The notes under the pieces are model-generated. The model did no database searches. It was given only the letters and a program-made list of their open reading frames with translations, and was not told the origin of the DNA. Positions 61,063 through 61,174 of a stretch of 64,000 nucleotides of DNA are shown here, one piece after another. This stretch comes from Escherichia coli (GTDB lineage: Bacteria; Pseudomonadota; Gammaproteobacteria; Enterobacterales; Enterobacteriaceae), in assembly GCF_048403405.1 (NCBI RefSeq), contig NZ_CP183129.1. One strand, 5' to 3'. The position numbers and the translations under genes were made by a program. Each line of letters begins with the position of its first letter. Within the stretch, counting starts at the first letter, position 1.

Positions 61063-61142
61063 ATGCCCCCCGTACTACATTTGCCAACTGTATGCTACGC
61101 CTGTGTTGCCGCTTCTCTGGCCCACGGTTCGCTGTCGTTGTA

Positions 61143-61167
61143 GGCCCGGTAGCATGTGTACCGGGCC
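61143..61167 (-). repeat. Intercistronic stem-loop (GGCCCGGTA-gcatgtg-TACCGGGCC) between yeaG and yeaH
   Basis: 9-bp perfect inverted repeat 8 nt downstream of the yeaG stop; candidate mRNA processing or stability element. Confidence 0.4.
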
Positions 61168-61174
61168 AGGGTTG

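Follow-up and report, generated by a model that had tools for sequence, protein, structure and literature searches.

The genes for a protein kinase (yeaG) and for a DUF444 protein (yeaH) are carried on the minus strand of the 64,000-nt stretch of Escherichia coli DNA analyzed here (the window), and they are separated by an intercistronic spacer for which a first-pass annotation had given a length of 112 nt, a figure that proved exact (Table 1). YeaG and YeaH have been described as a joint "metabolic brake" under nitrogen starvation, their levels influencing survival and regrowth. A sequence of 312 nt around the site found a match of at least 95% identity in 5424 of the 5426 complete E. coli genomes, and the full yeaGH transcript likely ends at a hairpin followed by a U-run that was detected downstream of yeaH. 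Regarding additional coding potential, a 66-aa antisense ORF (61016..61216, plus strand) was rejected as being without support, and a 26-codon ORF (61079-61156, minus strand), whose AUG falls in the loop of the spacer hairpin described below and whose UAG lies 13 nt before yeaH, is probably no gene, since it has no Shine-Dalgarno sequence and its AUG is missing in the divergent Escherichia genome L002. Elsewhere at the locus, supplementary file 2 of Adams et al. reports a region of Rho-dependent termination on the antisense strand within the 3′ part of yeaH (MG1655 1870212, minus strand), which corresponds to about position 59805 of the window's plus strand.

Table 1. Features of the yeaGH locus and of the sdsR gene in the window.
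Feature	Position	Strand	Description	Basis
yeaG CDS	61175..63109	-	644 aa protein kinase; stop TAA 61175-61177	ORF list; RefSeq annotation of identical DNA
yeaH CDS	59779..61062	-	427 aa, DUF444	
yeaG-yeaH intercistronic spacer	61063..61174	-	112 nt	
REP-type palindrome	61140..61167	-	Stem-loop 61143-61167; GTAG head 61140-61143 (plus strand); mRNA reads ...CCGGGCCUAC	
RNA 3′ end equivalents	61137..61138	-	MG1655 1868879 and 1868880	Term-seq, placed via MG1655 CDS coordinates and alignment
Putative relic of second, inverted REP	61107..61125	-	GUGGGCCAGAGAAGCGGCA	Alignments with relatives
Predicted SdsR pairing site	61075..61089	-	AGUUGGCAAAUGUAG; 12-26 nt upstream of yeaH AUG; pairs with SdsR nt 13-29	
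yeaH Shine-Dalgarno	61066..61071	-	GGGGGG	Sequence; kept in alignment of relatives
Terminator-like hairpin and U-run 3′ of yeaH	59746..59774	-		Terminator scan
sdsR (RyeB) sRNA gene	6730..6829	+		Rfam RF00111, 113 bits

The first-pass annotation had pointed to a perfect 9-bp stem in this spacer, placed 8 nt after the yeaG stop and about 80 nt before the yeaH start. The stem was indeed present: its arms, GGCCCGGTA (61143-61151) and TACCGGGCC (61159-61167), pair perfectly over 9 bp around a 7-nt loop, with a folding energy of –16.8 kcal/mol on the minus-strand mRNA, and exactly 80 nt were counted from the last paired base to the yeaH AUG. As for the distance from the stop codon, 7 nt (CAACCCU) intervene between the yeaG TAA and the first paired base, which occupies position +8, and the 8 nt given earlier amount to that position. 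Of 5000 dinucleotide-shuffled versions of the spacer, no more than 15 contained a perfect hairpin of at least 9 bp, and the pattern GCCCGG-N(3-25)-CCGGGC occurred once in the window, against 0.05 occurrences expected. The fold of the whole 141-nt region was no better than that of its shuffles (z = 0.15), and the structural signal is confined to the local hairpin rather than spread over the spacer at large.

This confinement bears on the idea of a long-range control of yeaH, in which the CCCU just past the yeaG stop would pair with the GGGGGG of yeaH across the base of the hairpin and only ribosomes ending yeaG translation would open the yeaH start. Such a CCCU-GGGG pairing does appear in the minimum-free-energy structures predicted for the spacer of the window and for that of K-12, and both YeaG and YeaH rise in an sdsR mutant. 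However, besides the shuffle-like fold of the region as a whole, the C-run is missing in L002, E. albertii, Enterobacter, Citrobacter and others, and the co-variation of the two proteins is explained by two separate SdsR sites, so that a control of this kind is considered highly improbable.

Comparison with known RNA elements did not provide the hairpin with a family. A search of Rfam with permissive thresholds returned none for it, and the only overlap, with RydC (19.7 bits, E = 3.8), was discarded as noise in view of the gathering score of 48. The 8 nt that follow the stem (UACAACGA) contain a single U, and the terminator scan made no call there; given this missing U-tract, the identity of an intrinsic (Rho-independent) terminator was ruled out.

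On sequence grounds, the hairpin is a REP-type palindrome (GTAGGCCCGG...CCGGGC) and would represent the remaining half of a decayed two-REP BIME. It is a GC-rich imperfect palindrome within the REP size range of about 20-40 nt and can fold into a stem-loop, it presents the GTAG(G) head together with a match to a described REP class, and it is extragenic and placed just 3′ of an ORF, 7 nt past the yeaG stop. On the plus strand, both arms of GTAGGCCCGGTA..TACCGGGCC match the REPs of Citrobacter koseri (GTAGGCCcGgTAAGCGaaGCGCCaCCgGGC) and Klebsiella pneumoniae (GTAGGCCcggcAAGCG..gccgGGC) listed in Table 1 of Nunvar et al. 2010, where the class reads GTAGGCCcGgTAAGCG..CCgGGC; the REP interior of this class (AGCG..GCGCC) is not kept in the yeaG-yeaH hairpin. 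In contrast to the Y and Z classes of E. coli REPs, the hairpin belongs by this match to the GCCCGG class, which is typical of Citrobacter and Klebsiella and was found scattered over 445 places in 256 records of Klebsiella, Citrobacter, Salmonella and Enterobacter plasmids.

An attribute of REPs that was not observed was the presence of many dispersed copies in the same genome. A blastn search under a permissive setting located the hairpin just once in each of 5424 E. coli genomes, whereas the canonical REP, used as a positive control with a 35-nt query, showed a per-genome median of 13 places in E. coli. Because of this single copy in its own genome, the element is here called a REP-derived relic rather than being counted as an active E. 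coli REP family member. The MG1655 RefSeq feature table has no REP at yeaG-yeaH, but it has none in malE-malF either, which makes this absence uninformative. A relic of this type, which is single-copy in its own genome and still marks an RNA 3′ end (see below), would be overlooked by a copy-number search or by a REP-less RefSeq feature table. Elements of this kind are well known; the assignment of the yeaG-yeaH hairpin as a REP relic was not found in the literature searched; the data placing the 3′ end and the SdsR contact were already public.

The putative second REP lies, in inverted orientation, between the hairpin and yeaH. Its relic in the window aligns with the GTAGGCCGGATAAGCG..GCATCCGGCA of the relatives, minus 11-13 nt; these inner nucleotides have been lost in the window, in K-12 and in E. 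albertii, and 4 more have been lost in one E. coli strain. The canonical form of REP2, GTAGGCCGGATAAGCG..GCATCCGGCA, is the same multi-copy E. coli REP that served as the control above. An arrangement of REP1, linker and inverted REP2 (GTAGGCCGG..CCGGC type) was observed at the same place in five relatives (L002, L005, L010, L011 and L014), these carriers being the divergent Escherichia genome L002, Pseudescherichia, Leclercia, an Enterobacteriaceae isolate and Pluralibacter. The BIME layout, with a second inverted REP a short linker away, is recognizable in these five relatives and survives only as a relic in the window. Judging from the alignments, the best explanation would be that a two-REP BIME occupied the yeaG-yeaH spacer of an enterobacterial ancestor.

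The malE-malF-malG spacer is reportedly the paradigm of a REP/BIME located inside an operon (Stern et al. 1984; Newbury et al. 1987). There, the malE-malF REP stem-loop shields the upstream cistron from 3′ exonucleases, and the upstream gene is expressed at a higher level than the downstream one. The yeaG-yeaH site resembles malE-malF in that the stop codon is followed, after about 10 nt, by a GC-rich REP with ..GGCCTAC at its end and then, beyond a short linker, by an inverted second REP, all of it transcribed within the operon, but it differs in keeping one REP, the interior of which has decayed.

Conservation across the Enterobacteriaceae, which the first-pass annotation had listed as a check on the stem, was assessed in the yeaG-yeaH junctions of 80 species-representative genomes and of the K-12 locus (81 spacers). 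A homologous hairpin, of the form GCCCGG..(loop)..C[C/T]GGGC and usually followed by CTAC, was found in 15 Enterobacteriaceae sequences (14 taxa and the window). In these 15 sequences, six core pairs were invariant, pair 7 was U-A in 6, C-G in 4, G-U in 1 and U-G in 1, and pair 8 was A-U in 7, G-U in 6 and G-C in 1, while 91% of the alignment cells were paired. The covariation score was 0.176 versus 0.123 in shuffles and was reached by 3 of 500 shuffles. Moreover, the stability of the stem was compared, lineage by lineage, with the refolded energies of random substitutions equal in number to the observed ones. L002, with 6 of 25 hairpin positions changed, still folds at –17.6 kcal/mol (random substitutions –5.9 ± 3.3, P = 0.0024), and E. 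albertii, with 8 of 25 positions changed, folds at –17.4 kcal/mol (random substitutions –4.6 ± 3.0, P = 0.0008). Palindromy has been preserved through this sequence turnover. Among the four sampled E. coli alleles, the stem was unchanged and sequence differences were confined to the loop and the REP2 relic. The loop (61152-61158, mRNA strand) was polymorphic, reading CACAUGC in the window, CACAUGU in K-12 and CACAUAU in strain EC02.

At the scale of the 81 genomes, the spacer, which lies at about 2900-3120 of each locus in L002-L081, varied in length between 13 and 220 nt. The shortest ones (13-36 nt), present in many gammaproteobacteria, consist essentially of just the Shine-Dalgarno sequence and bear no hairpin. 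Those of at least 46 nt carry a strong hairpin in nearly all cases, formed by lineage-specific and mutually unrelated sequences, and such long hairpin-bearing spacers were found in Yersinia, Serratia, Pantoea, Edwardsiella, Vibrio, Shewanella and Alteromonas. The recurrence of spacer palindromes could reflect either selection for a decoupling element or a site that is tolerant of palindromic insertions. Some of these spacers presented particular structures, such as stems of 20-23 bp in Yersinia (L027, L030 and L033) and terminator-like hairpins followed by a U-run in Edwardsiella (L038 and L040), Catenovulum (L062) and Shewanella (L075). In two Citrobacter genomes (L003 and L007, ~2950-3090), a 202-nt spacer contained, after the REP hairpin, an extra insert of about 110 nt with a long stem of its own (..CCCAGGAGCGTACATAAGTACGTGACTGGG..).

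REPs also keep their palindromy for DNA-level reasons, namely recognition by RAYT (REP-associated tyrosine transposase) and gene conversion, and for this reason a kept stem alone is no proof of RNA-level function or selection. The hairpin might accordingly be a neutral relic, that is, decaying selfish REP/BIME DNA whose associated 3′ end is the by-product of any stable mRNA stem and has no selected effect. The visible decay of the adjacent REP2 agrees with this explanation, as do the wide spread in spacer length, the hairpin-less spacers of many lineages and the divergence between E. coli and E. albertii, which is of 8 in 25 positions in the hairpin versus roughly 11 in 87 in the rest of the spacer; likewise, the invariance in sequence of the six core pairs is expected of REP identity rather than of pure RNA structure. 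Nevertheless, REP1 did not decay where REP2 did, its stability was kept through 6-8 substitutions far beyond chance, and the strong hairpins of nearly all the longer spacers are unrelated in sequence. Taking both sides together, neutrality is regarded as rather unlikely.

RNA 3′ ends have been mapped just past the hairpin. In the Term-seq data of Adams et al. 2021 (eLife), a 3′ end was placed at MG1655 1868879 (plus strand) in LB at OD 2.0 (stationary-phase, 1211 reads) and another at 1868880 (plus strand) in M63 (762 reads), both of them curated as the primary yeaG 3′ end. With the yeaG CDS of MG1655 ending at 1868842, these ends lie 37-38 nt past the stop codon and 5-6 nt past the stem, and they are equivalent to window positions 61138 and 61137, respectively. 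The read counts were low relative to those of strong terminators. The yeaG 3′ end was absent from the LB OD 0.4 list of the same study, a condition in which the operon is barely expressed, and the TERMITe supplements had no yeaG entry.

A step in RNA abundance was found across the same junction. The DESeq2 results of McQuail et al. 2023, obtained at 24 h of nitrogen starvation, list yeaG (1935 nt) with a baseMean of 5327.6 and yeaH (1284 nt) with one of 1791.6, from which yeaG exceeds yeaH approximately 2-fold (~2.0) per nt, the baseMean being no length- or bias-corrected abundance. The suggestion of the first-pass annotation that the stem could set the differential expression of yeaG and yeaH finds correlative support in the position of the Term-seq ends and in the RNA step; the REP/BIME origin, the missing U-tract and the SdsR site at yeaH had all been overlooked in it.

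The existence of a yeaG-only RNA species ending at the hairpin is supported by the mapped 3′ ends, the step-down in RNA and a known class of stem-loops. Dar and Sorek 2018 described stable stem-loops devoid of a U-run right upstream of steady-state 3′ ends, where they block PNPase and RNase II. The yeaG stem-loop shares with this class its stability, the lack of a uridine run and an RNA 3′ end a few nucleotides downstream, but it differs from it in being placed inside an operon and not at its end and in having a downstream region that is not C-rich.

Alternatively, the mapped ends might be termination sites, if RNA polymerase partly halted at or just past the hairpin, through either BIME-associated Rho-dependent attenuation or inefficient hairpin-driven termination, and yeaH were transcribed less as a result. 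The location of the 3′ ends relative to the stem, the roughly 2-fold RNA drop across the junction, the 80 nt of untranslated RNA past the stem and the link between BIMEs and transcription attenuation (Espeli 2001, as cited in another paper) are all compatible with such an attenuator, whereas the near-absence of U residues after the stem and the silence of the terminator scan are not. Likewise, the region past the stem is not C-rich (C/G 0.67) and not rut-like, and a Rho entry site is thus not evident there; no sense-strand bicyclomycin-sensitive region was reported for yeaG or yeaH in supplementary file 2 of Adams et al., although in the condition used (LB, OD 0.5) the operon is nearly silent. 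Attenuation at the hairpin is judged quite unlikely; in the favored interpretation, the 3′ ends would have arisen by trimming rather than by termination.

The interpretation favored here, with slightly better than even confidence, is that a yeaG-only mRNA has its 3′ end both set and protected by the stem-loop, with YeaG favored over YeaH as a consequence. According to this proposal, a stable stem-loop without a U-tract would fold in the yeaGH mRNA just past the yeaG stop and act as a barrier to 3′-to-5′ exonucleases, fixing the 3′ end. Transcripts cut or terminated farther downstream, in the spacer or in yeaH, would be trimmed until 5-6 nt were left beyond the stem, and the protected yeaG-only mRNA would remain, leaving more yeaG message, and presumably more protein, than yeaH. 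The stem would in this manner cause the step-down between yeaG and yeaH RNA and might alter the YeaG:YeaH protein ratio. Part of the downstream events would probably be supplied by the SdsR site at the yeaH ribosome-binding site, as the silencing of yeaH should expose it to a decay that halts at the hairpin.

The proximity of the hairpin to the stop codon raises the further possibility of a translation brake on yeaG, compatible with the protection of the yeaG 3′ end, in which the terminating ribosome would have to melt the base of the stem, and stalling and tmRNA would lower YeaG. According to Liang, Rudd and Deutscher 2015, as quoted in the RepRanger paper (2025), REPs placed less than 16 nt from a stop codon stall ribosomes and lower the upstream output through tmRNA. 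The REP-type hairpin of yeaG, at 7 nt from the stop, falls inside this limit as the RepRanger paper words it, and the stop-to-stem distance is 7-12 nt in all 15 sequences with the homologous hairpin. This constantly short distance is, however, equally explained by common descent from one insertion, and a brake would lower YeaG, an effect of opposite sign to that of mRNA protection; its contribution is accordingly viewed as improbable.

The spacer also contains a predicted pairing site for the sRNA SdsR. When opening energies were considered, AGUUGGCAAAUGUAG was the best SdsR site in the spacer, its partner being nt 13-29 of SdsR (CUGCAUUAAUGCCAACU), with a hybridization energy of about –19 kcal/mol, a value of weak specificity, since the same energy is attained at about 7 further loci in 128 kb. 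The site adjoins the yeaH Shine-Dalgarno sequence, and the block before the yeaH start, AGTTGGCAAATG(C/T)AGTACGGGGGG, is nearly invariant across the Enterobacteriaceae, most of which have a stronger SdsR site (–21 kcal/mol) ending exactly 11 nt before the yeaH AUG. A long duplex between SdsR and the REP2 relic, of –29.7 kcal/mol, emerged from an unrestricted duplex search but was rejected, having disappeared from the top sites when opening energies and restricted ranges were applied.

The predicted site is supported by the RIL-seq data of McQuail et al. 2023, in which sdsR:::yeaG.yeaH.IGT chimeras numbered 43, 36 and 65 at the onset of nitrogen starvation and 64, 98 and 149 at 24 h, the first N- replicate giving p = 4.9e-28 and a span of MG1655 1868803-1868944. 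The same study found YeaH to be 2.1-fold up in the sdsR mutant; its experimental validation concerned the yeaG 5′UTR site only, and the predicted yeaH site is displayed in its Fig. S6C. The SdsR-yeaGH repression described there and the hairpin involve the same operon and the same spacer, but the validated site is that of the yeaG 5′UTR and the predicted spacer site lies 54 nt downstream of the hairpin, as a separate element. The predicted site would constitute a second route to the differential control of yeaG and yeaH, independent of the hairpin.

A more comprehensive scenario would make the spacer a two-part module, in which SdsR silences yeaH and exposes it to decay, and an exapted REP hairpin halts this decay at the yeaG boundary, tuning the kinase-to-partner ratio in stationary-phase or nitrogen-starved cells; the independent palindrome gains in Yersinia, Pantoea, Vibrio, Shewanella and Alteromonas would then express selection for an insulator. 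This scenario is speculative and is put forward as doubtful. Concerning the modeling and engineering of the operon, both could be refined by taking into account a protected yeaG-only RNA, a second SdsR site at yeaH and an old REP hairpin that may be retained for its structure, and deletions or fusions that remove the spacer would change the hairpin and the SdsR controls at once. Among other RNA features of the window, SdsR/RyeB (plus strand) forms an sRNA pair with SraC/RyeA (minus strand) at 6689-6833, about 54 kb from its yeaGH target, and the Rfam matches that reached gathering level included the cspA thermoregulator (22322-22782, plus strand) and the sroD sRNA (41830-41915, plus strand), both unrelated to the hairpin.
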